DNA from: Lachnospiraceae bacterium
GTDB lineage: Bacteria > Bacillota > Clostridia > Lachnospirales > Lachnospiraceae
Direction of reading: 5' to 3'
NCBI GenBank assembly: GCA_017936885.1
Contig: JAGBEO010000001.1
Location: 1,733 to 65,732 of the forward strand
DNA: 64,000 bases
Shown one piece after another: positions 3,124 to 31,342 of the stretch. The notes under the pieces are model-generated. The model was not told the origin of the DNA. It worked only from the letters and a program-made list of their open reading frames with translations, and did no database searches. Every line of letters starts with the position of its first letter. Positions within the stretch are counted from its first letter, which is position 1. The position numbers and the translations under genes were made by a program.

Positions 3124-3609
3124 TTACAGATTTTCTTTCTGCCTGAATTGCTCTATATTTTGTGCTTCGGAAGCAGATAAAAGCCACTGTTCCAGCACTG
3201 TCTTGTCCTGTTGAGAGACGATTTTCTCTCTTAAATCTGCGGGAACCTCGCCCATGTTTTCTAACAGAGTCAGGATAGAAGCTGACATTCCTTCTTTCAT
3301 TCCTTCTTTTCTGCCAATCGCGATCCCCTCGTCTCTGATATAATCATCCTCAGCCCAGCGATCCCGTTTTGCTTTCCAATAATCATCGTAGAGCCACCGC
3401 AATGACTTTCTGATGCTCATATTTTTAACCATCCTGATGGCTTCTGCCATTCCCTCATTTTTAACTGCAATCATAGCCAGATCTGCCTCCTCCCGCGCAT
3501 TAAAAAGTCTGATCCAGTCATCCACCGGTGTCCCTTGTAATGCTTTTGTCAGTTCAATAATGTGTACTTCCCATAAATCTGTCAATTCTTTTCCCCAAGT
3601 GTCGCGCAT
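3124..3609 (-). pseudogene. C-terminal fragment of a PDDEXK_2/Rpn-type putative transposase (N-terminal nuclease core missing)
   Basis: The sequence WEVHIIELTK...DDWIRLFNA...EGIAIGRKEGMKEG matches only the C-terminal half typical of this family. No PD-(D/E)XK core is encoded upstream. Confidence 0.45.
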
Positions 3610-4680: not shown

Positions 4681-5622
4681 TTATATATTTATCATTCCTC
4701 CGGCGGCGGCATATTCCTCTCTGGAGCATCCCGTTACACGCATTATGATCTGTTCATCTAACCCTTCGCGCAACAGACTGCGGAGGATGCGAATTCTTTC
4801 TTCCTGTTTGCCTTCTTTCCGGCCCACTTTTCTTCCCTCTTTCCTGCCATTCTGCTTCTCTTCCTTAAGCCATTCATCCAATGCCTTACACATAGGTTCA
4901 CCCTCCTCCTCTACCTTTCTCAACAAGACCTTATTATTCAGATGCGCTGATATTACCACTTCTGTTTCATGACTAAGCTTCTGAAACCGCTCCAGACGAA
5001 TCAGTTCTTCCAGCTTCTCCCTATCGCCTCTGCACTGCATCGCCTGAAAAAACTCCCTTAAATCCGTATGGTAATTCCGCACATCGATATAATCAGCTTC
5101 CATCAGTGGAAAACCGTAATCGTTGAACAGCACGCCAGATTGGCTTGCGACCTTTTGCGATATCCGAAGCAGCTCAGCCAGATTCTTCCTGCCGCGCCAG
5201 CGCCCTTCTCCCATATATAAAACCATCGTAATAACAGGCTTCAGACAATCTATTTCTTTCATCCGGCTCTTCTTCTCCCGATACGCCTCATAAGCCTTAC
5301 TCTTCCGATGTTCTCTGTCAATCTCCCGTATCTGGCACTCATATTCACTGGCATCGTAAACCATAATGCGCTCCGGCATGCTGTAATCAGATTCCAGCTC
5401 AATTTCCAGTCCATAACAGATATTCTGTCCGGAATCATACATCAATATGTCCCGTTCTTTCTCCCCGGATGCTGATGACAGCGACGGGTAGCTTCTTTTT
5501 AACAGTTCCAGCCTCTCTGGTACAAGAACCTTCTCTCCATGATAAATCTCCATGTTAATCAGTTCTGCAAACCTGTCTGGTCCGGCAAAGAACCTTCTGT
5601 CCAGTATATCAATTTTGCCCAT
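4681..5622 (-). CDS. Rpn (YhgA-like) family recombination-promoting nuclease / putative transposase, copy A
   Basis: PD-(D/E)XK-like core (RDILMYD ... GLEIELESDYSMPERIMVYDA, compare the YhgA motif LIEHQS..MxxR). Lys/Glu-rich C-terminal tail. Paralogous to 25391-26287. Confidence 0.8.
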   Translation of the reverse strand: MGKIDILDRRFFAGPDRFAELINMEIYHGEKVLVPERLELLKRSYPSLSSASGEKERDILMYDSGQNICYGLEIELESDYSMPERIMVYDASEYECQIREIDREHRKSKAYEAYREKKSRMKEIDCLKPVITMVLYMGEGRWRGRKNLAELLRISQKVASQSGVLFNDYGFPLMEADYIDVRNYHTDLREFFQAMQCRGDREKLEELIRLERFQKLSHETEVVISAHLNNKVLLRKVEEEGEPMCKALDEWLKEEKQNGRKEGRKVGRKEGKQEERIRILRSLLREGLDEQIIMRVTGCSREEYAAAGGMINI

Positions 5623-7514: not shown

Positions 7515-8627
7515 CTACAATACTTCTTTCGTTTTATCCAAAGCTGCCGCGATCACCGCATCCATGTCATAATACTTATATTCTCCAAGCCTTCCGCCAA
7601 TAATTACCTTTGCTTCCTTATCTGCCAATGTTCTGTATTTTTTATATAGTTCATTATTTTTCTCATCATTGACAGGATAATAAGGTTCATCCCCCTGTTT
7701 CCATTCGGAGCTGTATTCGCGGCTGATAACAGTCTTGGGTAAATCTCTTCCCTCTTCATCCTTGCCGAACTCAAACCATTTATGTTCAATAATACGAGTC
7801 CAAGGCGTTTCCTTGTCTGTATAATTGACTGCCGCATTCCCCTGAAAATTAGGTATATTCAAGATTTCTGTTTCAAAACGCACGGAACGATATTCCAGTG
7901 TTCCCAACTTATAGCCAAAATAGGCATCAATCGGTCCGGTATAAATTATTCTTGATGCAAGCTTGTCCAGTTCCGCTTTATTTTCCAGATACTCAATTCC
8001 ACGGCTGACTTCGATACCATCTAACATATTCATAACCATTTGCGTATAGCCGCCAACAGGAATGCCCTGATATAAAGCGTTGAAATAATTATTATCAAAA
8101 GTAAATCTGACCGGAAGCCGTTTGATGATAAATGCCGGAAGTTCTTTACAGGGTCTTCCCCATTGCTTCTCTGTGTACCCTTTGATTAATTTCTCATAAA
8201 TGTCAGTCCCCACTAAGCTAATCGCCTGCTCTTCAAGATTCGTGGGTTTTTCGATGCCAGCAACTTTCTTCTGTTCTTCTATTTTGGCAGCCGCTTCCTC
8301 CGGCGTTATAACACCCCACATCTTATTAAAGGTGTACATATTAAAAGGAAGGGAATATAATTCACCACAATAATTTGCTACCGGAGAATTGGTAAAACGG
8401 TTAAACGCTGCAAATCGATTCACATAGCTCCAGACCTCCCTGTTATTTGTATGAAAAATATGAGCGCCGTATTTATGTACATTGATACCCGCTATTTCTT
8501 CTGTAAAAATATTTCCTGCAATGTGAGGCCGCTTGTCAATGACAAGAACCGATTTACCTGCGTCTGCCGCTTGTCTTGCAAATACGGAGCCGTATAGACC
8601 GGCGCCTACTATTAGATAGTCGTACAT
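7515..8627 (-). CDS. glf: UDP-galactopyranose mutase
   Basis: N-terminal FAD fold YDYLIVGAGLYGSVFA, ...VHKYGAHIFHTNN, and full-length resemblance to Glf. Confidence 0.92.
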   Translation of the reverse strand: MYDYLIVGAGLYGSVFARQAADAGKSVLVIDKRPHIAGNIFTEEIAGINVHKYGAHIFHTNNREVWSYVNRFAAFNRFTNSPVANYCGELYSLPFNMYTFNKMWGVITPEEAAAKIEEQKKVAGIEKPTNLEEQAISLVGTDIYEKLIKGYTEKQWGRPCKELPAFIIKRLPVRFTFDNNYFNALYQGIPVGGYTQMVMNMLDGIEVSRGIEYLENKAELDKLASRIIYTGPIDAYFGYKLGTLEYRSVRFETEILNIPNFQGNAAVNYTDKETPWTRIIEHKWFEFGKDEEGRDLPKTVISREYSSEWKQGDEPYYPVNDEKNNELYKKYRTLADKEAKVIIGGRLGEYKYYDMDAVIAAALDKTKEVL

Positions 8628-8643: not shown

Positions 8644-9858
8644 TTATAAAATAGAAATTGTCCTAGTTAATCTTTCTGACAGATTATATCCATCCCAAAT
8701 CAGATCAAAATCCATAGTTTGACCGACCGGAACAATACGATCAATTCCTTTAATGCCAGATTTAATCAGAGGAATAAACATATCTTTGTCACCAATATAT
8801 CCTATCGTCTGGCATTTCTTGTCATTACAAAGATTATATAACTCAAGAATCTCATGACAATCGTACTCAAAGAAATACCCAGAATTATCTTTCATATCCA
8901 TGAGGTCATCTATAATTTCAGTAATTTGAACTCTAACGATTAGATTATCGCCGTTTTGCTTAATCTTAACTTTGTCTGCATGAACAGCCATCAAATAAGC
9001 ACTAGTTATTTTGTTAATTCCCTGAATAGGCTGAAAAGTATATTTCTTTAATACAACTTCGTGCAAATGAATCCAAAACAAATCTTTTGCTTTCGTTATA
9101 CAACTACCTGTCCACACAACAATACGCGGACTAGTGCAAGCATTCTGATCAGTCAAATATGTATCATTATAAAAATCTTCGGCAACTTTAGCCTTATTTT
9201 CAATTTCAATATATTTATCACTGTCAATAACAGCCAGCGAATATCTATCGGCAAATGTAACCTCACCTGCTCTAGATGATAACGGAGATTTACGGATTTC
9301 TTCAATTGTAGCATCACCGCCCCAAATAATTCTTACATCAGCTATAGCCGATAAGAAGTCATTAACTTTCTGATCTCTGTCATAACGAACAAGACAAATA
9401 TATGCTTTCATCTCTACAAATTCTTCAAGAGTCTCTTTAATAGCCCGATTGATAATTTCAACCTGTGGAAAATCTTTCGATGGAATTCTTACTATATTGG
9501 CATTGCCAGTAAGTAATCCACTCACCAAAGAATAGGCATAGTTTACGGGAACATTCGACGGTGCAATATGTAAGACAATTCCTCTTCCAAGGTGTAAATT
9601 ACTATCATCACATGAAAATCTATCCCTAAGTTTTATAATAGAAGTTTTTCTCATCCAAAATCCTAATGTAATGATATCAGGATATACTTGTGCTTCCGAA
9701 GATCTCATTAAACGTTTTGAGACATTACTAAGGAAATCCACAACTGATTCATCAAAAGGTTCTTTAGCTGCCACTTTAGACATTCCTTCAATTGTTTCAG
9801 CAGATCCAACTAAATAGGAAATGTTATCTAATACTTTTTTATTTATACTTTGCTGCAT
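8644..9858 (-). CDS. LuxC-like acyl-CoA/acyl-protein reductase (aldehyde-forming)
   Basis: HIAPSNVPVNYAYSLVSGLLTGNANIVRIPSK and the putative catalytic-Cys region TDQNACTSPRIVVW resemble the LuxC family. Start is placed at the internal Met, overlapping the upstream gene by 20 nt. Confidence 0.7.
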   Translation of the reverse strand: MQQSINKKVLDNISYLVGSAETIEGMSKVAAKEPFDESVVDFLSNVSKRLMRSSEAQVYPDIITLGFWMRKTSIIKLRDRFSCDDSNLHLGRGIVLHIAPSNVPVNYAYSLVSGLLTGNANIVRIPSKDFPQVEIINRAIKETLEEFVEMKAYICLVRYDRDQKVNDFLSAIADVRIIWGGDATIEEIRKSPLSSRAGEVTFADRYSLAVIDSDKYIEIENKAKVAEDFYNDTYLTDQNACTSPRIVVWTGSCITKAKDLFWIHLHEVVLKKYTFQPIQGINKITSAYLMAVHADKVKIKQNGDNLIVRVQITEIIDDLMDMKDNSGYFFEYDCHEILELYNLCNDKKCQTIGYIGDKDMFIPLIKSGIKGIDRIVPVGQTMDFDLIWDGYNLSERLTRTISIL

Positions 9859-10930
9859 AAGTATCACTACACCCCCTAATCTCTGCATTCTTTAATCTTC
9901 CGATAATCTTAAAATATTTACCTTTTCTACCACATGGACAATCATCTTCACCCAAAATAATTCCCTCATCCTCAGTAATCAAAGAATGCCCTGGATACGA
10001 CTCTGGAATTGTTGATACAACCTGTATAATACCCCTCTCTCCAAAATCACACTCAGAAAAATCTGTTGGTCTACGGGTAATCACATCCGAAAAAATGCTC
10101 GCATGAAGATGCCCACATTCACATTGCATATATATACATCCAGTTTGTTCTACCATTCCATAGTAATCGTGTATTTTGTCCAATCCACACATATCTTTCA
10201 GGCAATTGTGAAATTCTTTTGGGCTTACAGATTCATTAACAAGTTTCTTCCATCCACCACCATGAATGAGAATTCCGTTAGATAAATCAAATGTAATTCC
10301 TTCTTTTTTTAACTGACGCAACTCTTTATAAAAATGCTGCCATATCATAAAAGTGAAACCAAATAAAAGAATTTTCTGACCTTGAAATTTATTTAGAAAT
10401 TCTTTTAAACCTTCTACATCCAGTCTCATATCATCATCTAAAGCATACATTTTTCTTGTTCCGAATATAGAAAATCCCAAAATACCAGCACCTCTTGCTG
10501 AAAACATCGCTCTATCTTTCACGACAGATGGACAATCAATAATAATCATGGGCATACGACTAGAACCCGTAAAATCAGAAACAATTTTAACCATAGCCTT
10601 CTGTTGATTAGAAGATGTTTTTTTATCCAAAAATATTTTTGAAACAGCCTGTCCTGATGTTCCTGAGGATGTCATAGTCTTTACTATCTTTTCTTGAGGA
10701 ACACTTTTCAATGATAACTCCTTAAAAAGCCGTACCGGTAAAAAGGGCAACTCTTTATATGAAGTTACTATACAAGAATTATAGCCGATACTTTCCAATA
10801 TCCTTTTATATTCATCACAATGCTCTTTATGGTATATTGTCAACTCTACTAGGCGTTTTGTAAGAATTTTCTTCTTATCCTCTTTTTCAAGCGAATAGGG
10901 TGAAATATCTATAATTTCTTCAAATTCCAT
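9839..10930 (-). CDS. LuxE-like acyl-protein synthetase (adenylate-forming)
   Basis: TMTSSGTSGQ P-loop-like motif. Overall layout matches LuxE / F390-synthetase-like enzymes. Translationally coupled to the LuxC-like gene. Confidence 0.7.
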   Translation of the reverse strand: MEFEEIIDISPYSLEKEDKKKILTKRLVELTIYHKEHCDEYKRILESIGYNSCIVTSYKELPFLPVRLFKELSLKSVPQEKIVKTMTSSGTSGQAVSKIFLDKKTSSNQQKAMVKIVSDFTGSSRMPMIIIDCPSVVKDRAMFSARGAGILGFSIFGTRKMYALDDDMRLDVEGLKEFLNKFQGQKILLFGFTFMIWQHFYKELRQLKKEGITFDLSNGILIHGGGWKKLVNESVSPKEFHNCLKDMCGLDKIHDYYGMVEQTGCIYMQCECGHLHASIFSDVITRRPTDFSECDFGERGIIQVVSTIPESYPGHSLITEDEGIILGEDDCPCGRKGKYFKIIGRLKNAEIRGCSDTYAAKYK

Positions 10931-11642
10931 AACTATTATTTAACCTTTCCAATATTATTTCTGCCATTTTCCTGTAATGTTCCTGAATAAAGAAATGATT
11001 CCCTTCAAATTCATAGAAACAACAATTATCTGTAAAATATTGTTGCCATTGCATCATATCTTTCAATGGTGTATCAGTCTCAGAATAAAATATTGTTGCT
11101 GGAATCTTTGTTTCTAGGGAAAGTTCTTCAAACCTATATTTTCCAATGATTAAATAATCGGCTCTATATATAGGCAGATATACTCGCCAAAAAATTTTAT
11201 TATTTACTAATTTCTCTGGAATCCCACCGAATTTTATTGTTCTCTCTTTTACGTATTCATCTAATTCATTTTCATCAAAGCTTACTAATTCTGTCTTAGA
11301 ATGGGGTTCATGAGCAGCCAAAAATATATGTCTTGGAAGTAATATTTCATTTCGTTTCATTATAAGCTTCAACACTTCTATTACTGTAATACTTCCCATG
11401 CTGTATCCCATAAGTGCATAGCTATTACAACCATGGAGATAACTTCTTATGTTGCGATACATATCTTCCGCAAGCTCATTAAAATCATTATAAAATGGCT
11501 CTTTATGACGCATCCCATGTCCTGAGTATTCTAACTTAACAAACTTAATCTGTGGGAGACAGTCATCTAACTGATCAAAAAAGTTTAATGTACCTCCTGC
11601 ATATGTAAAACAAAATAAAATCATCAATTCACCTGATTCCAT
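10920..11642 (-). CDS. Type II thioesterase (alpha/beta hydrolase)
   Basis: FCFTYAGG N-terminus, GYSMGS nucleophile elbow (GxSxG) and C-terminal GNHFF, as in GrsT/TEII-type thioesterases. Confidence 0.75.
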   Translation of the reverse strand: MESGELMILFCFTYAGGTLNFFDQLDDCLPQIKFVKLEYSGHGMRHKEPFYNDFNELAEDMYRNIRSYLHGCNSYALMGYSMGSITVIEVLKLIMKRNEILLPRHIFLAAHEPHSKTELVSFDENELDEYVKERTIKFGGIPEKLVNNKIFWRVYLPIYRADYLIIGKYRFEELSLETKIPATIFYSETDTPLKDMMQWQQYFTDNCCFYEFEGNHFFIQEHYRKMAEIILERLNNSYGI

Positions 11643-11669
11643 AATAATGTGTCATCCATCACTTCTTAA

Positions 11670-13121
11670 TTAAATATTTCGAGCAATTTTGGATAAAATT
11701 TGTTTAAAAATATCATTTACCAAAGGCTCTTTGAGAATAAGAAGAACTATTCCGTAGAATCCAAAAAATAATGTTCCTGAAATTAATAACGAAAGAACAC
11801 TACTGAAATCAAACCATTTAACCCATATGCAACTTAAACAACTAACAACCAACGCAATAAAAATTCGACCGTAATGAATTTTCCTATAAGCATTAATTAC
11901 TTGATCTTTCAAAACAATAAGCTGATAAACAAATACAGATATCTCCGCAATCAAAGTGCCTATTGCCGCTCCAGTTGCGGCTAATTTAGGAATTAAAAGC
12001 AGATTCAAGATCAAATCAACCACTGCCCCTACTATTTCAGAATATAAAACTACAATTTCCCTATTAAGCGGAACTAATATTTGAATCCCCATGATATTAG
12101 TCAATCCAATAAATAATATCGTTGGAATAATAACCTGCATTGGAACAATTGCTCCAACATAAGAAGTCCCTGATAGAAAAAAAATCCCTTCTTTAGCATA
12201 AATAATAAAATAAATCACCATCGGTGTAGCTAATAGTGCAACAAAATTTAATGCTTTCGTGGTAATTCTGTCGAATTCTTTTATTTTTCCTTGTTCAACA
12301 TAGTAAGAGGATCTGGGTAACAACACTGTACCTAAAGAAGTCACGATACTGAGCATTACTGTTTTTATTTTTACGGCAGCATTATAATACCCTACATCTT
12401 CATCTGTTGTCATGAAGCCAAGCATTACTGTATCCAAATGTGTATATATTGTTGTTGCACATGCCATAGCAAAAAATATTGAAATTGGCTTAAAATGAAC
12501 TCTAAGGTCATACCCTCCTACTGGTTTCACATCAATATATTTATGTACATTAAAAAAGTTAAAAATATTAGATGCAGAAGAAGCAAAAATTGAAATTGCG
12601 CCATATATAACATAATCGCTCCTATGATGTATAAGTAAAAACATCGAAATCAATGCTATAAATTTAAAAATCACTGATCTAATAGTAATATATGTATATT
12701 GCTCCAATGCTTTGTAAAGCCATTCCATTCCAATTGCATTTAGTGCAATTGTAAAACTAACGATAATATACAATGTTCTATCATCATAAAGCCTCGAAAC
12801 AGTAAATAAAGCCACACCGAGAGCAATATATGCAAGTATACTCATTAAAATATTCATGAATAATAATTCATGTGCAGTTCTTGTTAATGCTACTTTATCT
12901 TCTCTAACCTTTGCACATGCACGAACTCCATATGTAGGAATTCCCATTTGAGCAAACATATTAAAGTAATATATTAATGAAGTGGCAAAAGATACTCTTC
13001 CAGTTCCTTCTGGCAATAAAATTCTTGATATATATGGAAAGGTAACTAATGGAAAAATGAATGAAGACATTGTAAGCAATGAATTCATAATAAAGTTCCT
13101 TTTTATCGATGGATGACTCAT
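11670..13121 (-). CDS. wzx: Wzx-type oligosaccharide flippase (MOP superfamily)
   Basis: 483 aa with about 12-14 TM helices. The polysaccharide-biosynthesis-protein N-terminus and the locus context fit a flippase. Confidence 0.8.
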   Translation of the reverse strand: MSHPSIKRNFIMNSLLTMSSFIFPLVTFPYISRILLPEGTGRVSFATSLIYYFNMFAQMGIPTYGVRACAKVREDKVALTRTAHELLFMNILMSILAYIALGVALFTVSRLYDDRTLYIIVSFTIALNAIGMEWLYKALEQYTYITIRSVIFKFIALISMFLLIHHRSDYVIYGAISIFASSASNIFNFFNVHKYIDVKPVGGYDLRVHFKPISIFFAMACATTIYTHLDTVMLGFMTTDEDVGYYNAAVKIKTVMLSIVTSLGTVLLPRSSYYVEQGKIKEFDRITTKALNFVALLATPMVIYFIIYAKEGIFFLSGTSYVGAIVPMQVIIPTILFIGLTNIMGIQILVPLNREIVVLYSEIVGAVVDLILNLLLIPKLAATGAAIGTLIAEISVFVYQLIVLKDQVINAYRKIHYGRIFIALVVSCLSCIWVKWFDFSSVLSLLISGTLFFGFYGIVLLILKEPLVNDIFKQILSKIARNI

Positions 13122-14356
13122 TTTTTATTTCCTTCCATAGAATCGCAAAACTCAGTATAACGTTTCAGAAAAGCTTTATCATCAAAGTATTCTTTCTGAA
13201 TTGCCCTATTTTTCATTTTCATTTCATCCAAATCACCATCAAGAATATCTATAAGCCCTGCTGTATCATTAAAATCACTCACAAACAAACCGCTGCCATC
13301 TTTAATTACTTCCAAATTTCCTCCTACCGGAGTTAGGATTGGAATTCCTCCATAATACATAGCCTCAAGTGTTGATAAATCAAAAATAGAGTATTTATGA
13401 AATAAAATATAAAAATCCGATATAGAAAAAAGTTGTAGAATTTCTTCATGAGACATATAGTCTTTTATCCATATTGTCTCCTTTTGAATCCCGGCTTTTT
13501 CTATTTCCAAAGCTACAGTCTCTGCTTGAACACCATTTCCTACAAGTACCCACTTAAAATTAATTCCCGAACTCTTCACTTGACCAAGGTACTGTGGAAT
13601 TCTCTCTACAGCTTTTGCGGTATTAAGGGTGGCAACAGTCGTAAAAATATAACCTTTAAATCTTTGAAGTTCTTTAATCCACTTGCTGCAATCAGCTAAA
13701 TTTATGTCAGGACAATTTACACCATTGTACAGGAAGCAATATTGACATTTAGCTTCATATTTTCTTAATTCGTTTTCAGATTCAAAAAAACTGTTCTTTG
13801 CACCTTCTGACGGAAAACCTATATAATGCATATTTGATATTATCTGCTCATAGCAGCTTTCGTAATATTTCTTCACGGCAATGCAATCATACCCATGAGA
13901 CGCCCTCCATTCATTATAAAAACTTCCTTGTGTATGAATTACCATGATACATTTGGGGAATGAATATAAATTTACAAAAGATCTAGCAAATTGAAGATCG
14001 TGAAAAATATAGATATCATCACATGTAAAATGATATGTTTCTCCCAACTTTTTCATATATGATTGAAGTCGCAAATAATTCTTTTCATATTGTCTAACCT
14101 TGACGAATCCTGGAATATTTCTTGTAATAAATGCTTTTACCACCGAACTTGATTTCTTTTTTTTCTCAGCTAACGGTCCACTATCATTATTACCTTGTAT
14201 TACTCGATCTCCAAACACAAAATATGCATTATTCAACAAACTATATTTCTTATTTGCTTGGTATAGTCTATATACAACCCCTTGTCCACCACCTGTTTCC
14301 CCATAACATGGCTGATATGCAAAAATAAATGTTCTACTCACTTGACTGACCTCCAT
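13118..14356 (-). CDS. GT-B glycosyltransferase (GT4/GT1-like)
   Basis: C-terminal EAMYYGGIPILTPVGGNLEVIKDG matches the E-x7-E-type GT-B motif. Confidence 0.75.
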   Translation of the reverse strand: MEVSQVSRTFIFAYQPCYGETGGGQGVVYRLYQANKKYSLLNNAYFVFGDRVIQGNNDSGPLAEKKKKSSSVVKAFITRNIPGFVKVRQYEKNYLRLQSYMKKLGETYHFTCDDIYIFHDLQFARSFVNLYSFPKCIMVIHTQGSFYNEWRASHGYDCIAVKKYYESCYEQIISNMHYIGFPSEGAKNSFFESENELRKYEAKCQYCFLYNGVNCPDINLADCSKWIKELQRFKGYIFTTVATLNTAKAVERIPQYLGQVKSSGINFKWVLVGNGVQAETVALEIEKAGIQKETIWIKDYMSHEEILQLFSISDFYILFHKYSIFDLSTLEAMYYGGIPILTPVGGNLEVIKDGSGLFVSDFNDTAGLIDILDGDLDEMKMKNRAIQKEYFDDKAFLKRYTEFCDSMEGNKK

Positions 14357-15617
14357 ATAAAAATTGCTTTTCCTTTATTATTGTTGGTATATAATAGCAC
14401 AAGGCAAATAACAAAAGCGGAAAAGAGTCTCTGAAAATATGGTCATCCGTAATCATGCAAATCAGCAGTGCAATAAAACTTGCACTTATAACACAGGCAA
14501 CTTTATCATACAGAAAACGGTAATTGCTCTTACTGCAAATGGAAATATAAATAAGAAACAAGATCAATGCTATAATTCCGCCTTCATATAATATCCATAA
14601 GAAACTGCTATGCGGATTACCCAATGAAAGGATTCTCCATACTTCAACATTTCCTTCATCTAAATATCCACGTCCAATAATAGGATGTTCAAGCCAAGCA
14701 TTAATTGCGTTAATCCATATTGATACCCTAGTAGAAATCTTAACTTGTCTATTCATGACATTAGACATCCACGACATCAACAAATTTAACCACTGTGAGT
14801 CATTATTCGTATAAAAGAATACATATACAGCAATAATAATAGCTATAATAGACTTTAAACTAAATTTAATCTTATATTTATGCAATAAATAAATACCAAT
14901 AAACATTACAATGATAATATAATTAGTTGCGGAATTTGCAATAAGAACTTCTGCAAGGCAAGTAATAATTAATACTTTGCTTCGAAAACATAATTTTCCC
15001 TGATTATTCACAAAATATGAATACAATACTGCTACGCATAATGCTGGTAATACATATCTAATAAGAGTCGTTTGATGTCCCAATAACCAGTGAACTCTTG
15101 TAGAACTTGTCCGCACAAAGTCTCTTGTATTTTTTACCACCTCATCTCCCAATGTTCCTGTGACAGAATGATACATTCCGTTAGGATACAAAATCATAAA
15201 AAACAAATTAACATAATTTAAGACTTCCATTACCTTCATTAAAATAGTAATTGTTCGCATTGCTTTATATCTACTAAATAAATAAGAAATAAGCAGCACA
15301 AAAGATATTCTTCGGATTGTTCTTATTAAACACAAACCAAACTTATCCGGACACATGAAAAGAGTAGAAAATAAAAAGTATCCAAAAAAAAGAGACGTAA
15401 AGACAATAAGTTTATTAAATGCTCTTCTTTTTGCAAAAAAAGTAATAAAAAATACATCACTTACACAAATAATAATCAAACATATCGAACTCCAGCCAGG
15501 TATATCCACTACTCTTGTTACAAAAGTTGTAACATATAAAATAAACAAAATTGTGTATATAACATCCTTTATGTTGAATTTTAAGCTCATTTTTTTTTCA
15601 GCCTTTTTCAACCTCAT
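14334..15617 (-). CDS. wzy: Wzy-type O-antigen/capsule repeat-unit polymerase
   Basis: Polytopic membrane protein with a large loop and a Wzy_C-like segment (GNPHSSFLWILYEGGIIAL). AAGGAG lies 9 nt upstream of the ATG. Confidence 0.7.
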   Translation of the reverse strand: MRLKKAEKKMSLKFNIKDVIYTILFILYVTTFVTRVVDIPGWSSICLIIICVSDVFFITFFAKRRAFNKLIVFTSLFFGYFLFSTLFMCPDKFGLCLIRTIRRISFVLLISYLFSRYKAMRTITILMKVMEVLNYVNLFFMILYPNGMYHSVTGTLGDEVVKNTRDFVRTSSTRVHWLLGHQTTLIRYVLPALCVAVLYSYFVNNQGKLCFRSKVLIITCLAEVLIANSATNYIIIVMFIGIYLLHKYKIKFSLKSIIAIIIAVYVFFYTNNDSQWLNLLMSWMSNVMNRQVKISTRVSIWINAINAWLEHPIIGRGYLDEGNVEVWRILSLGNPHSSFLWILYEGGIIALILFLIYISICSKSNYRFLYDKVACVISASFIALLICMITDDHIFRDSFPLLLFALCYYIPTIIKEKQFLYGGQSSE

Positions 15618-15643
15618 TGGTGTCTGCTCCTTGTTCTAAACAT

Positions 15644-16789
15644 TCAATACCTTAGTGTATTTTCATACGCTTCTACATAAAAATTTTTCAGTTTTTTAGA
15701 TTCATATCTAATATCATATCCTGCTTCAATAAGTTCTTCTGCTTTATCTGACCGCTCATAATTTTTTATTCCAAGTAAATAATCAGCCCAAATCTCAGGT
15801 TCCTGATTTAAAGAAAACACACCAAATTGATTAAAAGTGTTCATTTCCGGATCTAACGAATCAGAGATAGCCCCCTTAAGACCAGTGCACTGAACTTCCA
15901 CAGTAACAACACTAAAGCCTTCATATAAGGATGGAAAAACAAAACAATCCATGGCTTGTAAATAATCAGCTACATTACTTACAGACCCTGTAAAGATAAT
16001 CTTATCCAATATGCATAACCGATTTGCTTTTTCAATTATTTTTTCTTTTAATGGACCTTCTCCAATCATTAATAAGCGCGATTTAGGTTCCTTTTCAAGC
16101 AGTTTGCTGAATATGTCTATCACAAAAGACTGATTCTTTTGATTTCCTTCATATCTCCCAACGTGCCCGACTAAATACTCGTCTGATATTCCTAACTGCT
16201 TTCTGACAGTCGTCCTTATCCCCATATCATAATGAAAAGAATCCGTATTAATTGCATTATGCAAAACGAAATTCTTTGGATTATCCATTATTTTTTTACC
16301 AAATGCACTTTCTCCTGCCTGTTTACCACATCCTATACAATGGGTTGCCAGCTTTTGTGCATTATATCTTAAGATTTTCCTATAAATCGGTCTTATTATT
16401 GGATTACATTTATCTGCCATAATGTTATAATCACAGTGAGAATGAAGAATTCTTATGGGGACTCCATGTTTTTTTGCCATATAGAGTGGCAATATTTTTT
16501 CCGGAAAATTATTATGAACAATATCAAACTTGTATGTTTTGAAAAGATTCTCATACTCCTTAATATTTTGCTTATTAATTCTAATTACATGTACAGGAGA
16601 TAATTGATGCACAATGAATCCCATACTTTCAAAATATTTTTGTCTTGGAATATATGGATCCATATGTGTTACAATATGAAGCTCAAATTTATTTCTGTCC
16701 ATATTAGAAAAATAGTTCTCAAATACTTTTTCCACTCCACCATTGTGGAATCCTTTAATAAATAAACATATCTTAATTTTCCTATTCAT
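15644..16789 (-). CDS. GT4-family glycosyltransferase
   Basis: FVFPSLYEGFSVVTVEVQCTGL (EX7E motif) and an N-terminal GT4 fold. Confidence 0.8.
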   Translation of the reverse strand: MNRKIKICLFIKGFHNGGVEKVFENYFSNMDRNKFELHIVTHMDPYIPRQKYFESMGFIVHQLSPVHVIRINKQNIKEYENLFKTYKFDIVHNNFPEKILPLYMAKKHGVPIRILHSHCDYNIMADKCNPIIRPIYRKILRYNAQKLATHCIGCGKQAGESAFGKKIMDNPKNFVLHNAINTDSFHYDMGIRTTVRKQLGISDEYLVGHVGRYEGNQKNQSFVIDIFSKLLEKEPKSRLLMIGEGPLKEKIIEKANRLCILDKIIFTGSVSNVADYLQAMDCFVFPSLYEGFSVVTVEVQCTGLKGAISDSLDPEMNTFNQFGVFSLNQEPEIWADYLLGIKNYERSDKAEELIEAGYDIRYESKKLKNFYVEAYENTLRY

Positions 16790-16813
16790 AATAGTTATAT
16801 AAACTCCCGTGAA

Positions 16814-17839
16814 TCACATAAAATCCTTCTCTTCTAATAATGTATCGGATTCAACATCATGTCTTAATGTCCTTCCTAAATACTTCTTCTTATCATCCAG
16901 TGCAACACCAATTCCAGGTCTTTTACCATCCAAATCCTCTGCGCCAATAATCTCTCCTGCTTTCATGTCTCTAACATAAATCAAACTACGACGCATTTTC
17001 GTTCTCTGTTCGATTTCTTCCTTGGATACAATCCTTTCATACGATCCTAGAGCCTGCTGTACATTCCTGCAGGAATCCACAAGTTTTTTCATTTCGTCCG
17101 GCTCAGTTGCCATCTGATTATCCATACCTATCTTCGTCTTATCCAAGGTTAAATGTTTTTCAATGAGACATGCCCCCAATGCAATAGCAGCAGAAGCCAT
17201 TTCTGTTCCAATAGAATGGTCTGAAAAGCCAATCGTATAATCAGGAAATTCATTCTTTAGCATGCAGATATTGTATAAATTTATAGTTTCCGGTGCTGCG
17301 GGATAAATAGAAATGCAATGCAACAGGCAAATATTTTTATTTCCTGCACTTTCAATAACACTTACCGCTTTTCTTATCTCATCCATATCGCCCATTCCTG
17401 TTGATAGAACAATTGGGAAACCGGTTTTCGCTATATATTCCAAAAAATCGTAATTATTCAGCTCCATTGAAGCAATTTTAATAAAAGGAACTTTATTTTT
17501 CACTAGAAAATCAACTTCTTTTTTAGAATATGGAGTCGAAGAAAAGGCAATTTTTTTTTCACTGCAATATTCCACAATATCTAAAAGCTGTTCCTCACTC
17601 AAAGCAAATTTTTTTACAAATCTTTTAGAGATTGGGTTTTGCGCATAATATGTTTTTGAATACAATGATTCAGTTGACCATGATTGAAATTTAACACAGT
17701 TGCATCCGCATTCTACAGCAGCATCAATCATTTTCTTTGCAACATTAACATCTCCGTTATGGCTTGAATTAACTTCAGCAATCACATAAGGACTCCATCC
17801 CTGTCCCACTTCTGTACCATCTTTAAATTTAATACTCAT
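16814..17839 (-). CDS. NeuB-family (N-acylneuraminate / nonulosonate synthase-like) PEP-aldehyde condensing enzyme with SAF domain
   Basis: YVIAEVNSSHNGDVNVAKKMIDAAVECGCNCVKFQ, LSTGMG, GFSDHS, IEKHLTLD, and a C-terminal SAF-like segment RRSLIYVRDMKAGEII. Confidence 0.85.
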   Translation of the reverse strand: MSIKFKDGTEVGQGWSPYVIAEVNSSHNGDVNVAKKMIDAAVECGCNCVKFQSWSTESLYSKTYYAQNPISKRFVKKFALSEEQLLDIVEYCSEKKIAFSSTPYSKKEVDFLVKNKVPFIKIASMELNNYDFLEYIAKTGFPIVLSTGMGDMDEIRKAVSVIESAGNKNICLLHCISIYPAAPETINLYNICMLKNEFPDYTIGFSDHSIGTEMASAAIALGACLIEKHLTLDKTKIGMDNQMATEPDEMKKLVDSCRNVQQALGSYERIVSKEEIEQRTKMRRSLIYVRDMKAGEIIGAEDLDGKRPGIGVALDDKKKYLGRTLRHDVESDTLLEEKDFM

Positions 17840-17852
17840 TTTAATTCCTTCC

Positions 17853-18599
17853 CTACGACCACAATCTTCCGCCATCAACAACCATAACCTGTCCAGTCAT
17901 AAATGATGATTGATCTGATGCCAAAAATACAATTGCATTTGCTATTTCTTCAGGATTTGCCATACGCTTCATGCTGCTTCTATCTAATACTTTTTGAAGA
18001 TCAGCATCTGGAATTTCTTTATTCATTTTGGTATCTGTCAAGCCCGGTGCCAATGCGTTAACTCGAATATTATACTGTGCAAGTTCTTTCGAAATTGTCT
18101 TCGAGGCATAAATCAATGCAGCCTTACTGGAACCATATGCCAATTTTCCCTCCGTCGTTTCTATACCACTTACAGATGCGACATTCACAATAGAACCTTT
18201 TTTCTGCCTCATCATCAATCTGGCAACCAATTGCATTATATAAATTTGTTCAAAATAATTAACTTCAAACACTTCCTTTAACTTGCTGATCGATGTCATG
18301 GTAAACATACCATTGTAAACTGTACCAGCAGCATTCACCAGCACGTCTATACTTCTTTTTTCCAAAGAAATTTCCTTAATAGCAGTCTTCATTTGACTCT
18401 CATTAGTCATATCAAAATATACTGCTTTAATCCATACGCCGTATTGATTAGCTATATTCTGCAAATCCTGTTCAAACTGTTCCGTTTTAGTGCGGGTACA
18501 TGCCCACACATTTCCGCCATTTTCAGCGATTTTATTTACAGTTGCCAGACCTATTCCGCCTCCTGCTCCAGTGACTATTACATTTTTATTTTTTAACAT
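17853..18599 (-). CDS. SDR-family oxidoreductase (FabG-like)
   Basis: VTGAGGGIG cofactor motif and YGSSKAAL catalytic YxxxK. Confidence 0.85.
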   Translation of the reverse strand: MLKNKNVIVTGAGGGIGLATVNKIAENGGNVWACTRTKTEQFEQDLQNIANQYGVWIKAVYFDMTNESQMKTAIKEISLEKRSIDVLVNAAGTVYNGMFTMTSISKLKEVFEVNYFEQIYIMQLVARLMMRQKKGSIVNVASVSGIETTEGKLAYGSSKAALIYASKTISKELAQYNIRVNALAPGLTDTKMNKEIPDADLQKVLDRSSMKRMANPEEIANAIVFLASDQSSFMTGQVMVVDGGRLWS

Positions 18600-18616
18600 C
18601 TTGCATCCTCACTCAA

Positions 18617-20008
18617 TCACTTTACCGGCAACTGTGAGTACAGGACTTTGCCAGACTCATTATGCGGAATTTCATCAATATGTTTAACAGAAAACGCTGT
18701 TCTATTTAAACCTGTTTTGGAAGAGATAAATTCAACTAGTTTTTCGCAATCATCCGCAGTTGTATAAACAAGCATATGATCATCTTCGCCAACACATGCG
18801 ACTTCATATCCTTCTTTACCAAAAAGGTCTTCTACTTCTACCAAATTTACACGATTACCAAAAATTTTAAGGAAACGTTTCTTTCTGCCAACTACATAAT
18901 AAAAACCATCCTTATCTCTTTTAGCCATATCTCCAGTCTCAAGGCGGCCTTTTCGTTCATCACCCTTATTCAGATCTTCTCTGGATTCTGCATATCCAGG
19001 GGTAACATTTGGTCCATAATAAACCAATTCGCCAACTTGCTCTGGCTCAGTAATCACACTGCCATCCACATCAATAAGTTCAAAATGTCCACCAGGGATT
19101 GCAATGCCAATACTTCCGGCTTTTTCTACCGTTTTATCTGCAGGTACATAACTCATTCTTGCTGTAGCTTCAGTAGCGCCATACATAACTACAAGTGCCT
19201 TCCCTTTTTCACGCATACCTAACCCAAACTTACCGTGAAGCTCTTCTCCCAATCTTCCTCCTGCCTGAGTAATATATCTGAGAGAAGGGAGATCCATTTG
19301 AAGAAAACGTAATTTATCCAACATTTGATATGTATAAGGAACTGCACCAAAAGTAGTAGCCTGAGACTTCTGGAAGTAATCCCAAAAACCTCTGTCAAAG
19401 AAGGTCTGTTCTGTTAGTATAAGTCTTGCTCCTGCCAAAAGATGTGACTGGACAATTGATAGTCCATAAGTGTAATTCATTGGCAAAGTTGTTATTGCCC
19501 TATCTTGCGGAAGAATCCCTAAATATTTAACGATAGCTTCGGTATTGGACTGAATATTGACATATGTTTGTCTCACGAATTTAGGACTCCCTGTACTACC
19601 GGATGTTGTCAGCATAACAGCTAAATCTTCATCCATTGCCGGAACCTGTGTTCCGGTTTCGATAAGTTTATAATTCTCCATCTCATATACAGGCAAATTA
19701 TCTACGAAATCATTTGGGCACCAAATATACTGTGGCTTGTAAATATTTACAAGATTTTCATACAATGCCCTATCAATTGTATGACCAAGCATTACTGGCA
19801 CAATCCCTTTTTGAAGGAAACCAACATATCCAGCAACTGCCCCAATTGAATTTTGGCAAATGCAAAAAAGCAACGAACGCTGCGAAATACGGCTTGAAAT
19901 TTCCTGAGCCATTTTATCCAGCTGCCCATAAGTAATTTCTCTGGATTCCTCCATCAATGCTACGGAATCCTCAAATTGTGCAAGATTGCACCAAAAATAA
20001 TTGCTCAT
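18617..20008 (-). CDS. AMP-binding adenylate-forming ligase (acyl/aminoacyl-carrier-protein ligase-like)
   Basis: TTSGSTGSPKFV, YGATEA and GDMAKRDKDGFYYVVGRKKRFLKIFGNRV core motifs. It sits immediately downstream of the carrier-protein gene. Confidence 0.85.
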   Translation of the reverse strand: MSNYFWCNLAQFEDSVALMEESREITYGQLDKMAQEISSRISQRSLLFCICQNSIGAVAGYVGFLQKGIVPVMLGHTIDRALYENLVNIYKPQYIWCPNDFVDNLPVYEMENYKLIETGTQVPAMDEDLAVMLTTSGSTGSPKFVRQTYVNIQSNTEAIVKYLGILPQDRAITTLPMNYTYGLSIVQSHLLAGARLILTEQTFFDRGFWDYFQKSQATTFGAVPYTYQMLDKLRFLQMDLPSLRYITQAGGRLGEELHGKFGLGMREKGKALVVMYGATEATARMSYVPADKTVEKAGSIGIAIPGGHFELIDVDGSVITEPEQVGELVYYGPNVTPGYAESREDLNKGDERKGRLETGDMAKRDKDGFYYVVGRKKRFLKIFGNRVNLVEVEDLFGKEGYEVACVGEDDHMLVYTTADDCEKLVEFISSKTGLNRTAFSVKHIDEIPHNESGKVLYSQLPVK

Positions 20009-20020
20009 TCTTACTACCTC

Positions 20021-20260
20021 TTAAATTTCCACTTCGTATTTCTTCAGAATTTCTTTTCCTTTTAAATAGGAAGAAAAATCAATAATATCATCCGTATCCA
20101 TCATAATATCAAATGCATCCTCAAGCGCAGCAACAAGCGACATATGACCAACAGAGTCCCATTGCTCAACACCCATATACTGAAGACTATCGAAGTCTGG
20201 ATTTGCCAGTTCGAAAGTTTCGCAAAATGCCTGATTATACTTTTCTAAATTTGTCATCAT
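20021..20260 (-). CDS. Acyl carrier protein (phosphopantetheine-binding, DltC-like)
   Basis: 79 aa, acidic, with the WDSVGHMSLV serine attachment motif. Confidence 0.8.
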   Translation of the reverse strand: MMTNLEKYNQAFCETFELANPDFDSLQYMGVEQWDSVGHMSLVAALEDAFDIMMDTDDIIDFSSYLKGKEILKKYEVEI

Positions 20261-20305: not shown

Positions 20306-20977
20306 TTACTCCTCCTCAACTATTTTCCTATACTTCATTTTATTTGCCGGAATACCGGCCACCTTCTGATCAGGCTTTATATTAGCAAATACCATGCTTC
20401 CCGAGTAAACTTGGACATTGTCTCCGATTTGTATATGTTCCATTAAGAAAGCATGACTCCCAATCCGAACCTTCTTACCTATATCAGCATTTGTAATATT
20501 GGCAAGTGCATCTATTGTCGTATATGCACCTACATGAGCGGCTCCCGCCATAACATTTATCATCGTCACAAACTCATCAAATACCGCCCCATCTTTAAAA
20601 CTATAATTTGATATTACACAGCCTTCACCTATATGGAGATGATCCGGCACCAAAGTCCAAGGAGTAAGAATTGTCAAAAAATCTGCGCCTTTATCTTTCA
20701 GAATTTTCGCAAAGTGTTCTTTACTTTCAGGATTTTTTATTCCCATAACATATTGTTCATTTTTAGTTGGCTGCCATGAATCTATATCTCCTAAAATTGG
20801 TTTAATGCTATTGTCAACCAATCTAAACGGATGCGAGTGGTTAGAAATAAAACCCATAATATTGTATGTGTCATTAGATAACCGTTCTTTTTCAACATAA
20901 CCATTGATCTCATTTAAAATTGAATATATTTCTAATCCAAATAAATCCTCACAGACTATGATTACATTTTTTTGCAT
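20306..20977 (-). CDS. NeuD/PglD-type sugar N/O-acyltransferase (left-handed beta-helix), paralog 2
   Basis: N-terminal Rossmann-like NVIIVCEDLFG followed by C-terminal hexapeptide repeats. Paralogous to the adjacent gene. Confidence 0.75.
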   Translation of the reverse strand: MQKNVIIVCEDLFGLEIYSILNEINGYVEKERLSNDTYNIMGFISNHSHPFRLVDNSIKPILGDIDSWQPTKNEQYVMGIKNPESKEHFAKILKDKGADFLTILTPWTLVPDHLHIGEGCVISNYSFKDGAVFDEFVTMINVMAGAAHVGAYTTIDALANITNADIGKKVRIGSHAFLMEHIQIGDNVQVYSGSMVFANIKPDQKVAGIPANKMKYRKIVEEE

Positions 20978-20997: not shown

Positions 20998-21642
20998 TTA
21001 CATCTGCGATTCAACCGCAGGAAATCCAAATACTTTCTTATCTGAAGGAATATCTTTTGTTACAATACTTCCTGCTGAAATATTGACATTACTGCCTACT
21101 GTTACTCCTTCCGTAACAACTGCATGACTGCCAACATAAACGCCCTCACCAATAGACGCATTTTCAACAACTGCAAATCCTGTTGTGGTACTGTAATCTC
21201 CAATAACAGCTCCCGGCATAATCATTGATCCGTGCATATTAACATAGTTTCCTATCTTTACACCACTTGCGATATGGTAAGCTTTTATCAGGCAGCCTTC
21301 ACCAATTATTAAATCTTCAGGAAGAATAACATAAGGTGCAATAATTGTTTCAAACTGGCAACCTCTGTCTTTGAGCTTTTCCACGACTTCTTTCTTTGAT
21401 GAAGGCTTGCCTAATCCAAGTGCATAGGCTTCATGTCCAACAGGTTTCCAATCTTTAATTGTCCCTAAAATAGGAAGATCAATTTCTGTATTATCTAAAG
21501 CATCCGGAATATCATTAATAAATCCCAATAAATTGTATGGTTCCTCTTTCCCATCTTTTTTTGCAGCCTGGTTTATTTTTCTTATGGTATAGTACATTTC
21601 TTTTCCATAACTGCCCGCACATACAATAATGATATCTTTCAT
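20998..21642 (-). CDS. NeuD/PglD-type sugar N/O-acyltransferase (left-handed beta-helix), paralog 1
   Basis: MKDIIIVCAGSYGKE N-terminus and hexapeptide repeats (IGEGVYVGSHAVVTEGVTVGSNVNISAGSIV). Confidence 0.75.
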   Translation of the reverse strand: MKDIIIVCAGSYGKEMYYTIRKINQAAKKDGKEEPYNLLGFINDIPDALDNTEIDLPILGTIKDWKPVGHEAYALGLGKPSSKKEVVEKLKDRGCQFETIIAPYVILPEDLIIGEGCLIKAYHIASGVKIGNYVNMHGSMIMPGAVIGDYSTTTGFAVVENASIGEGVYVGSHAVVTEGVTVGSNVNISAGSIVTKDIPSDKKVFGFPAVESQM

Positions 21643-21663: not shown

Positions 21664-22626
21664 TCAATTAACTTTGAATGACTTTTTGAAAGAGTACTTT
21701 AAGCTTCGTCTACACCCTACACTTTCTTTAAAATCACATAATCCATAATTTGGAATACTGTCCTCTGTTGCTATTTCTTTGTTCAATATCTTATAGCCTA
21801 AATTTCCATAATAATTAATAGTAAAATAGGTCAGCATATTCATTCCATTATCTCCTGCATGATCAGGAAGTGTCCCTGTATATATGCCCTGTACAATTTC
21901 TTTATTAATTCGATATAAAAATTCAGCAACTATCCCAATCTCCCCATTTCTTACGATAAACACATCATGATCTACTAATTTCATTGTATCCATCAATTGT
22001 TCAAAAGACATACGAACGGGAAATCCTTTAAACTCATGTCCCATTTTCACTATTTCATATGCCTCAGCATATTCTTCTTCCGTTTCACATTTTTGAATGG
22101 TGAGACCATTTCTCTGTGCGCGTCTTAAACTCTTTCTTCCTTTAGCTGTAATCAATTGACCATAAGATTCGACATCAACATTCATCTCCTCTAAATCAAT
22201 TGCATAATTCACATCTATTTTAGTCAGTTCATAATTACATCGATAGAATGAACTAATCCATGCAGACAAAATATGCTCATCATAAAACATAGGAGGAAAA
22301 GTAAATCTAATTTCTGACACTCCAATGCTAATACAATAATTTTCTAAAGCCTGCACCGCCTCATCGTATGTAGCTAATTTTTCATTCTTTTTAATTTCCA
22401 CGGGATAAGAATAAGATGCCGAAAAAGGGCATTTAACCAAATCACCCGTTCTACCTAATATCAAACCAAATTTTGCAGCCTTCTCTCTCATAAATATAAG
22501 ATAATAGACCTCATCAACTTTATCCCTATTCAATTCACAAAAAACCGGCTCATTAAAAAATATACGTCTATCTAAGACCAAACTTGTATATTCTTCTGCC
22601 GTAACTCTTAAAACATCCATAAACAA
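21664..22626 (-). CDS. FemAB/GNAT-fold acyl(aminoacyl)transferase-like protein
   Basis: About 320 aa with a two-lobed layout and a GRKSLRRAQRNGL segment reminiscent of FemAB/Acetyltransf_6 proteins found in glycan loci. The assignment is tentative. Confidence 0.4.
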   Translation of the reverse strand: MFMDVLRVTAEEYTSLVLDRRIFFNEPVFCELNRDKVDEVYYLIFMREKAAKFGLILGRTGDLVKCPFSASYSYPVEIKKNEKLATYDEAVQALENYCISIGVSEIRFTFPPMFYDEHILSAWISSFYRCNYELTKIDVNYAIDLEEMNVDVESYGQLITAKGRKSLRRAQRNGLTIQKCETEEEYAEAYEIVKMGHEFKGFPVRMSFEQLMDTMKLVDHDVFIVRNGEIGIVAEFLYRINKEIVQGIYTGTLPDHAGDNGMNMLTYFTINYYGNLGYKILNKEIATEDSIPNYGLCDFKESVGCRRSLKYSFKKSFKVN

Positions 22627-25337: not shown

Positions 25338-25390
25338 CAGGAGTTTCTTCCATAAATATTATTCAGCTGTATAATTTCAGACCTTTCTTC

Positions 25391-31339: not shown

Positions 31340-31342
31340 CTC

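Follow-up and report, generated by a model that had tools for sequence, protein, structure and literature searches.

What does a trio of genes related to those of bacterial bioluminescence do in the capsule locus of a gut bacterium? The question is raised by a 64-kb stretch of a contig from a Lachnospiraceae metagenome-assembled genome (the window hereafter, whose positions serve as coordinates throughout), in which adjoining genes for a type II thioesterase, a LuxE-like acyl-protein synthetase and a LuxC-like acyl-thioester reductase lie between wzx and glf. The original prediction treated this triad as a functional unit in the manner of LuxD, LuxE and LuxC, making an aldehyde destined for the glycan, with Vibrio cholerae O1 as its only precedent. 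Comparison of related loci gave a larger unit. The triad forms the downstream half of a single conserved cassette for glycan tailoring, which is horizontally mobile, and a small acyl carrier protein (ACP) and an adenosine monophosphate (AMP)-binding ligase of the other half are encoded about 7 kb upstream. As to the chemistry, we consider the chances evenly balanced that the split cassette builds an unusual (reduced, hydroxy) N-acyl decoration on a capsule amino sugar by way of an ACP-tethered aldehyde.

Profile searches, the check put forward with the original prediction, placed the three proteins in the families first read from the letters. Each scored above the Pfam curated cut-off (thioesterase to PF00975, 84.3 bits against 26.4; LuxE-like protein to PF04443, 192.5 against 24.9; LuxC-like protein to PF05893, 99 against 21), and the motifs GYSMGS, SSGTSGQ and DQNACTSP were all present. 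Residues 6-361 of the LuxE-like protein cover positions 21-389 of the 391 in its profile; the LuxC-like match is limited to residues 99-259. The genes overlap, thioesterase with LuxE by 11 nucleotides (nt) and LuxE with LuxC by 20 nt or 50 nt, according to whether LuxC starts at 9858 or 9888. The longest open reading frame (ORF) begins at 9888, and the NCBI protein and most homologues begin at the ATG at 9858, which is preceded by an AGGGGG ribosome-binding site and is also the start of the 100%-identical NCBI protein. Pfam returned no Bac_luciferase match in any window ORF of at least 150 residues, in agreement with the stated lack of luxAB.

For the gene-neighbourhood survey, an alignment of 27 LuxE representatives was used to fetch loci, one genome per GTDB species, and at least 596 stretches of species-representative genomes (of 600 pattern-matched) were found to encode a relative. 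The best 80 of these, with LuxE 64-81% identical, were kept and annotated with the window proteins and with clusters of recurrent neighbours; counts out of 59 refer to those among the best 80 with at least 8 kb upstream and at least 5 kb downstream. The AMP-binding ligase was present in all 59 loci, the ACP in 57, LuxC as a separate gene in 56 (the remaining loci have LuxE-LuxC fusions) and a short-chain dehydrogenase/reductase (SDR) in 48, whereas the thioesterase was found in 19. ACP and ligase thus stay with LuxE and LuxC, and the triad did not hold up as the functional unit. The ACP gene stands directly upstream of the ligase gene in most related loci, and the usual order is ACP-ligase-[thioesterase]-LuxE-LuxC, or more generally ACP, ligase, [SDR, NeuB-like], [thioesterase], LuxE, LuxC, with bracketed members optional; a common gut homologue (P0031) has an uninterrupted SDR-ACP-ligase-thioesterase-LuxE-LuxC run. 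Because the parts co-occur across the survey and are contiguous elsewhere, the window is read as holding one cassette cut in two by a block of two glycosyltransferase (GT) genes, wzy and wzx, with the ACP, ligase, SDR and NeuB-like genes in the upstream half at 16.8-20.3 kb. Here the ACP, the ligase, LuxE, LuxC and an alcohol-forming reductase all fall within one minus-strand operon (8644-20260).

It is hardly credible that the split cassette is a decaying remnant without function in this locus. Its interruption by four genes, within a low-GC block flanked by transposase-like genes, is what decay might look like, but the reading frames are all intact, the catalytic residues are conserved, no convincing terminator was found inside the operon by a terminator scan, and the same split order recurs in another Lachnospiraceae species (L026) with proteins 58-77% identical. 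The window's arrangement is repeated in locus L022 as well as in L026.

The surveyed taxa include Lachnospiraceae, Oscillospiraceae, Treponema bryantii, Gastranaerophilales, gut Alphaproteobacteria, Smithella, a 'Candidatus Proruminimicrobium' metagenome-assembled genome and Muribaculaceae, a spread that implies horizontal transfer. The LuxC-like protein falls into at least 5993 clusters at 90% identity; one close homologue was found on 503 contigs among the matches listed and is indexed in 873 assembly-collection blocks. The window is therefore an ordinary instance of a widespread module, neither unique nor rare in gut Firmicutes, and the novelty first claimed for a Gram-positive gut bacterium was given up.

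The lux reductase LuxC/LuxD/LuxE of Photobacterium phosphoreum (PDB 7XC6) was the reference for the reductive pair. The LuxE-like protein aligns over its full length with chain 7xc6_E (2.4e-20), the SSGTSG adenylation motif and the C-terminal GCS being matched; its acyl-accepting Cys354, some 10 residues before the C-terminus, did not vary among 27 diverse homologues, and GC[ST] was found near the LuxE C-terminus in 71 of 79 loci, the rest being mostly LuxE-LuxC fusions. In the LuxC-like protein, DQNACTSP aligns with DQQACFST of chain 7xc6_A in a weak sequence match (E 1e-4, identity about 15%), which brings its Cys to position 285 of that chain. This position would be the catalytic Cys296 (PMC9157457) given an offset of 11 in the chain numbering, a shift suggested by comparing the lengths of chain and protein. 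An AlphaFold2 model of the protein (predicted local distance difference test, pLDDT, 84.9; predicted template-modelling score, pTM, 0.80) was submitted to Foldseek, and 7xc6_A was the top match (E 3e-14, template-modelling score, TM, 0.74), with members of the aldehyde dehydrogenase (ALDH) superfamily next. DQNAC[TSN]S was conserved in 76 of 82 neighbouring LuxC genes of the surveyed loci. Since the C-terminal Cys and SSGTSG of LuxE are conserved and the Cys of LuxC aligns with the P. phosphoreum catalytic Cys, the pair is likely to be aldehyde-forming, and on this point the original prediction stands. In other respects the window departs from the lux system: it lacks luxAB and a transferase of the LuxD family, and LuxE and LuxC are accompanied by an ACP and a second adenylating enzyme.

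Judged by their sequences, both proteins are members of the families rather than orthologues of the bioluminescence enzymes, which bears on whether a long-chain fatty acyl group is what the cassette makes or reduces, so that a capsule sugar would be lipidated, the 'liposugar' idea of the flagellin-island papers. True LuxE and LuxC act on myristate (PMC9157457), the published annotation of such genes is fatty-acid biosynthesis (PMC7874193, PMC4875605), and genes for 3-oxoacyl-ACP synthase III (KAS III) or FabA stand beside some cassettes. The window proteins, however, fall far below the NCBIfam equivalog cut-offs for the lux-operon long-chain-fatty-acid--protein ligase (NF052244, 77.9 against 550 bits) and long-chain-fatty-acyl reductase (NF052251, 41.3 against 750 bits), and the LuxC-like protein, at 404-414 residues, falls some 80 short of LuxC (404 against 488). 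In true LuxC a long hydrophobic cleft for the C14 chain is formed with the C-terminal segment P460-P488. The usual partners of the cassette (transketolase, NeuB-like, Ldh/Mdh-like and SDR enzymes) act on small polar substrates, and in V. cholerae O1 the acid, tetronate, is a dihydroxy compound of four carbons (PMC3441752). A lipid product is accordingly held to be quite improbable.

The thioesterase had been cast as the counterpart of LuxD. The Pfam scan returned no LuxD-type family for it, the other match being a weak one to Hydrolase_4, and its top PDB matches, SrfA-D TEII (1e-19) and then RedJ, RifR and YbtT, are all editing type II thioesterases. It has in common with these a Ser-Asp-His triad (Ser81 in GYSMG, Asp190 and His216, at least 90% conserved in 23 orthologues) and a gene beside a carrier-protein pathway; its partner would be the stand-alone ACP of a glycan-tailoring cassette, whereas theirs are non-ribosomal peptide synthetases or polyketide synthases. 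Being encoded in 19 of the 59 loci, it cannot supply an obligatory step that frees an acid for re-activation, and since it is both optional and of the editing type, its simplest role would be that of an accessory housekeeper clearing mis-loaded ACP, rather than a LuxD-like one.

The serial scheme of the original prediction, in which the thioesterase frees the acid from its carrier, LuxE re-activates it and LuxC yields a free aldehyde (or alcohol or amine) that ends on the glycan, finds support in the thioesterase-LuxE-LuxC order with overlapping frames, which recurs in many loci. A thioester hydrolase, either the thioesterase or a nearby protein of metallo-beta-lactamase (MBL) fold, is present in 28 of 59 loci, so a release step has to be reckoned with. 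The scheme is nevertheless unlikely: ACP and ligase are nearly universal and the thioesterase is absent from 40 of the 59 cassettes, it is a PF00975 protein of the editing type, and loading an acid onto ACP only to hydrolyse and adenylate it again would be futile unless the acid were modified in between. A free aldehyde would also offer no activated carboxyl group to the N-acyltransferases encoded beside the ACP. The MBL-fold hydrolase occurs in the cassette neighbourhood of 9 of the 59 loci; a protein of this fold, of about 236 residues, adjoins the ligase in cassettes without a PF00975 thioesterase (loci L060, L063, L065, L067, L069, L071, L073, L085, L088 and L091) and may be a non-orthologous stand-in.

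We prefer the tethered-aldehyde mechanism, which starts from the upstream half. The ACP carries a WDSVGHM motif whose Asp35-Ser36 attachment site is at least 90% conserved in 71 orthologues. The top PDB matches of the ligase are an oxalate-coenzyme A ligase (3e-28) and chain 3wvn_A (7e-28), which we take to be VinN, loading 3-methylaspartate onto a stand-alone ACP, and which is weak evidence. Kinship to oxalate-coenzyme A ligase, a small-dicarboxylate enzyme, would fit a di-acid substrate, as a weak hint. The SDR falls below all NCBIfam equivalog cut-offs. Because two adenylating enzymes are combined with one carrier protein and one reductase, the substrate is proposed to have two carboxyl groups. 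The ligase would join one carboxyl group of a small di-acid to the ACP in thioester linkage, so keeping it activated for N-acyl transfer; LuxE would adenylate the free distal carboxylate, carry the acyl group on Cys354 and pass it to the Cys of LuxC, which with NAD(P)H would leave an ACP-tethered aldehyde. This aldehyde may be reduced by the SDR, or extended by three carbons by the NeuB-like enzyme with phosphoenolpyruvate (PEP), after which the SDR would reduce the new 2-oxo group, or both. One of two VioB-like hexapeptide transferases would then transfer the completed hydroxy-acyl group from its carrier onto the amine of deoxythymidine diphosphate (dTDP)-3-amino-3,6-dideoxyhexose, the FdtA/FdtB product, with the thioesterase proof-reading by clearing mis-loaded ACP. 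The analysis shows the gene families, the conservation of catalytic residues, the make-up of the cassette and the co-occurrence counts; the kind of substrate, its tethering while it is reduced, the sequence of steps and the acceptor at the end are what we infer.

For the NeuB-like protein a more familiar role has to be weighed, namely that it makes a genuine nonulosonic acid which the cassette N-acylates, the 3-amino hexose being no acceptor. Its NeuB and SAF domains match NeuB, PseI and SpsE structures at 1e-44 to 1e-50, the cassette lies among pse genes in Aeromonas (PMC7874193), and a pseudaminic acid acceptor is assumed in the flagellin islands. The protein nonetheless falls below the NCBIfam equivalog cut-offs for NeuB and PseI (TIGR03569, 317.6 against 399.65 bits; TIGR03586, 269.8 against 340.25 bits), and tblastn with cassette-neighbour queries found no cytidine monophosphate (CMP)-sugar synthetase or NeuC-like match in the 64-kb window, so a nonulosonic acid was set aside for this locus. 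The protein belongs to a cassette-specific clade, 60-76% identical across phyla, that lay beside ACP-ligase-LuxE-LuxC in all five NeuB-anchored look-ups (L095-L099: Arcobacter, Halobacteriovoraceae and three metagenomes). The usual arrangement there is FabA, a thiamine pyrophosphate (TPP) enzyme and NeuB, and no CTP_transf_3 (CMP-sugar synthetase) was among the Pfam matches listed within 9 kb in these five loci; the orthologous clade thus keeps company with LuxE/LuxC, FabA and the TPP enzyme rather than with CMP-synthetase genes, and the NeuB paralogues that do adjoin such genes are those of lower identity. We regard a nonulosonic product as a marginal prospect, no better than a lipid one, and the annotation 'N-acetylneuraminate synthase family', or sialic acid synthase, as probably wrong for the cassette clade.

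Other carbon-carbon (C-C) bond-forming enzymes accompany the cassette elsewhere. At least one enzyme of an aldehyde-acceptor family was found in 48 of the 59 cassettes (split transketolase in 33, NeuB-like in 21, an acetolactate synthase (ALS)-like TPP enzyme in 13), and Ldh/Mdh-like genes follow LuxC in 12, which would fit a substrate with two carboxyl groups. Ldh, transketolase and FabA gave no tblastn match within the 64-kb window. A tentative generalisation, for which we would claim distinctly less than for the mechanism in the window, is that the cassette is a small carrier-protein assembly line: rather than closing a pathway, LuxE and LuxC would leave on the ACP an aldehyde to be extended by exchangeable C-C-forming modules (NeuB-like, adding C3 from PEP; split transketolase, adding C2; ALS-like TPP enzyme), SDR, FabA or Ldh-like enzymes would trim, and sugars of capsules, O-antigens and flagellins in many phyla would come to bear N-acyl groups derived from polyhydroxy or keto acids. 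If this holds, the 'N-acetylneuraminate synthase family' clade would be reassigned to a non-sugar aldehyde substrate, and aldehyde extension would be a novel route to acyl chains built on a carrier protein.

Beside the main cassette many genomes (L007-L010, L011, L025, L055, L071, L087) have a further LuxE2-LuxC2 pair, paralogous to the first, whose genes come immediately behind an SDR-split-transketolase module or a NeuB-like gene, which suggests two successive carboxylate reductions within one pathway. A membrane-anchored family 2 glycosyltransferase (GtrB/ArnC-like), small EamA/SMR-like proteins and large polytopic membrane proteins often accompany the cassette (23 of 59; for example L013, L017, L020, L039, L089 and L098); this is the pattern of undecaprenyl-phosphate-sugar modification, so in such loci the acylated amino sugar may be added extracellularly. 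The sfmABCDE genes of Shewanella oneidensis were considered as the same cassette and rejected: they encode a NeuB-domain protein, a TPP enzyme, an SDR, a methyltransferase and an ATP-grasp protein, and resemble the accessory modules only.

The acceptor in the window is predicted from genes at the head of the operon, where the 3-amino-3,6-dideoxyhexose context first noted was borne out by an FdtA-like isomerase and a DegT aminotransferase; together they would supply the amino sugar. FdtA and FdtB need dTDP-4-keto-6-deoxyglucose, and tblastn found no rmlA or rmlB in the 64-kb window, so the precursor genes should lie elsewhere in the genome. Of the two hexapeptide transferases, the one directly upstream of the ACP has VioB, an aminosugar N-acetyltransferase, as its best PDB match (1e-11), is kept beside the ACP in L022 and L026, and corresponds in position to V. 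cholerae RfbO.

Annotations in the literature have already recorded the cassette, and the window has a split-form member of it in a Gram-positive capsule operon. V. cholerae O1 was aptly chosen as an analogue, for the shared parts list and setting, although it is not the only precedent. Its rfb/wbe genes assigned to tetronate synthesis include RfbN, with a LuxE domain, in a pathway proposed from homology (PMC3441752, PMC4772473); tetronate is the one structure linked to such genes, and V. cholerae O1 the one organism in which a product has been inferred. Likened by gene descriptions, RfbK-O and the window have the same parts list and the same setting, N-acyl tailoring of an amino-deoxyhexose in a surface-polysaccharide locus, and many homologues of the window LuxE are, like RfbN, fusions of LuxE and LuxC. 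Morona et al. are said to have described RfbK-O (VC0248-VC0252) in 1995 as an ACP, an AMP-ligase, an alcohol dehydrogenase, a LuxE-LuxC fusion and an acetyltransferase-like protein. The reasoning from two carboxyl groups is also the one put forward for tetronate, where malate would be converted to 2,4-dihydroxybutanoyl, and the tetronate antigen is a protective antigen and phage receptor. In contrast to V. cholerae O1, the window has an SDR in place of the iron alcohol dehydrogenase, separate LuxE and LuxC, an added type II thioesterase and NeuB-family enzyme, a split cassette, and a 3-amino rather than a 4-amino sugar as acceptor, in a Gram-positive anaerobe.

Further precedents are flagellin glycosylation islands. 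Those of Aeromonas group II carry an ACP, a 3-oxoacyl-ACP reductase, an AMP-dependent synthetase, luxE and luxC (PMC7874193); enterobacterial islands have the same gene set in some 70-80 strains (PMC4875605); and that of Dickeya zeae has the same core set with a split transketolase module (PMC7575072). All share with the window the five core families, an aminotransferase and a hexapeptide acetyltransferase, but they decorate pseudaminic-acid-based flagellin glycans, whereas the window is a Wzx/Wzy capsule operon with a 3-amino-3,6-dideoxyhexose pathway. Since no flagellin match was found in the window by tblastn, a flagellar context was set aside for this locus; in Lacrimispora saccharolytica a window-type cassette does lie beside a flagellin gene. 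An exopolysaccharide locus on a Deinococcus plasmid has ACP-SDR-AMP-binding ligase-LuxE-LuxC-acetyltransferase, Rhizobium plasmids have a transketolase variant, and the cassette was also found in polysaccharide loci of Arcobacter and others.

Aeromonas piscicola AH-3, which has a minimal cassette, carries a pseudaminic acid derivative of 376.14 Da together with an unexplained moiety of 102 Da (PMC7874193). By our own arithmetic, replacing acetyl by C4H6O3 (dihydroxybutanoyl) gives 316.13 - 42.01 + 102.03 = 376.15, and both species would fit such a group. Several points weigh against the tethered-aldehyde mechanism. This mass argument is built on nominal or low-resolution masses; the similarity of the ligase to solved enzymes (E about 1e-28) is too remote for substrate specificity; aimed literature searches found no biochemical work on the cassette, only annotation-level mentions. 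The thioester hydrolases counted above mean that hydrolysis may exceed housekeeping, the KAS III and FabA genes of some loci suggest a different chain building there, and the NeuB-like enzyme could act before LuxE and LuxC, for example by making the acid that is later activated.

Chemically, the surface glycans of gut Clostridia have hardly been mapped, and the decorations that they carry influence how phages, antibodies and innate immunity recognise the cells. With at least 596 stretches and thousands of protein clusters, spanning Lachnospiraceae, Oscillospiraceae, Treponema, Gastranaerophilales, Deinococcus, Rhizobium, Arcobacter, Aeromonas and Dickeya, the cassette is among the most widespread uncharacterised glycan-tailoring modules measured. 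Its chemistry, once worked out, would give an annotation for all cassette loci and an explanation of the 376-Da and 102-Da flagellin masses of Aeromonas.

The operon itself occupies 25005 to 7515 on the minus strand as one unbroken series of closely spaced genes (Table 1). Its order is FdtA-like isomerase, DegT aminotransferase, Bac_transf initiating transferase, a 320-residue ORF, two hexapeptide N-acyltransferases, the 79-residue ACP, AMP-binding ligase, FabG-like SDR, NeuB-family protein, GT1, Wzy, GT1, Wzx, thioesterase, LuxE-like, LuxC-like and Glf. Pfam matches of the flanking genes confirmed the place of the triad between wzx and glf, with 27 nt between the wzx end and the thioesterase gene downstream and glf starting 16 nt past the LuxC gene. 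The Wzx/Wzy operon, together with the upstream genes for CpsB, Wzz, a CpsD-like ATPase and LytR, marks a Wzx/Wzy capsule-type locus, as had been proposed.

Table 1. Features of the capsule locus and its surroundings, in window coordinates
Feature	Position	Strand	Evidence
CpsB, Wzz, CpsD-like ATPase and LytR genes, upstream of operon	28450-32883		Pfam
Rpn/YhgA-like or PD-(D/E)XK 'transposase' ORFs	25391-26365, 4681-5622, 3124-3609, 46267-47157
Terminator-like hairpin, 20-bp stem and T-run	25302-25347	-
FdtA-like 3,4-ketoisomerase	24556-25005	-	PF05523, E 1.8e-40
DegT aminotransferase	23457-24566	-	PF01041, E 7.9e-118
320-residue ORF	21664-22626	-	weak FemAB-like match, E 0.018
Second PglD/VioB-like N-acyltransferase	20998..21642	-	Hexapep and PglD_N; VioB 4.5e-18
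Hexapeptide-repeat N-acyltransferase, candidate acyl-ACP:aminosugar transferase	20306..20977	-	Hexapep
Small ACP, first gene of upstream half	20021..20260	-	weak PP-binding match, E 0.015
AMP-binding ligase, presumed ACP loader	18617..20008	-	PF00501, E 4e-43
FabG-like SDR	17853..18599	-	adh_short_C2, E 3e-56
NeuB-family protein, predicted PEP-dependent and aldehyde-condensing	16814..17881 (probable start about 17839)	-	PF03102 and SAF
GT1-Wzy-GT1-Wzx block, parting the cassette halves	11670..16789	-	Pfam matches
Wzx	11670-13121	-	PF01943
Type II (editing-type) thioesterase, optional cassette member	10920..11642	-	PF00975, E 2e-23
LuxE-like acyl-protein synthetase, adenylating, C-terminal acyl-accepting Cys	9839..10930	-	PF04443, E 1.4e-56
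LuxC-like acyl-thioester reductase	8644..9888 (probable start 9858)	-	PF05893, E 3.7e-28
glf, uridine diphosphate-galactopyranose mutase, final operon gene	7515..8627	-	PF03275, E 5.7e-80
Mannoside-utilisation cluster, downstream	52057-62691	-

GC (guanine-cytosine) content is 31-39% in the variable part of the capsule locus and 42-50% in the flanks. The low-GC part is bracketed by the transposase-like ORFs of Table 1, and both features suggest a serotype-specific block exchanged through recombination. The terminator-like hairpin lies between a transposase-like gene and fdtA and divides the conserved cpsB/wzz/cpsD/lytR genes from the variable operon. A promoter scan, with 85 sites against 86 expected, was uninformative. 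The 320-residue ORF, which comes after the initiating transferase gene and before that for the first hexapeptide acyltransferase, matched no Pfam family above cut-off and has a 60%-identical homologue at the equivalent position in the syntenic locus L022. The mannoside-utilisation cluster is unrelated to the cassette and encodes a glycoside hydrolase family 1 (GH1) protein fused to phosphomannose isomerase, a GDSL esterase, two GH130 phosphorylases, an N-acylglucosamine 2-epimerase-like protein and an ATP-binding cassette (ABC) sugar transporter.

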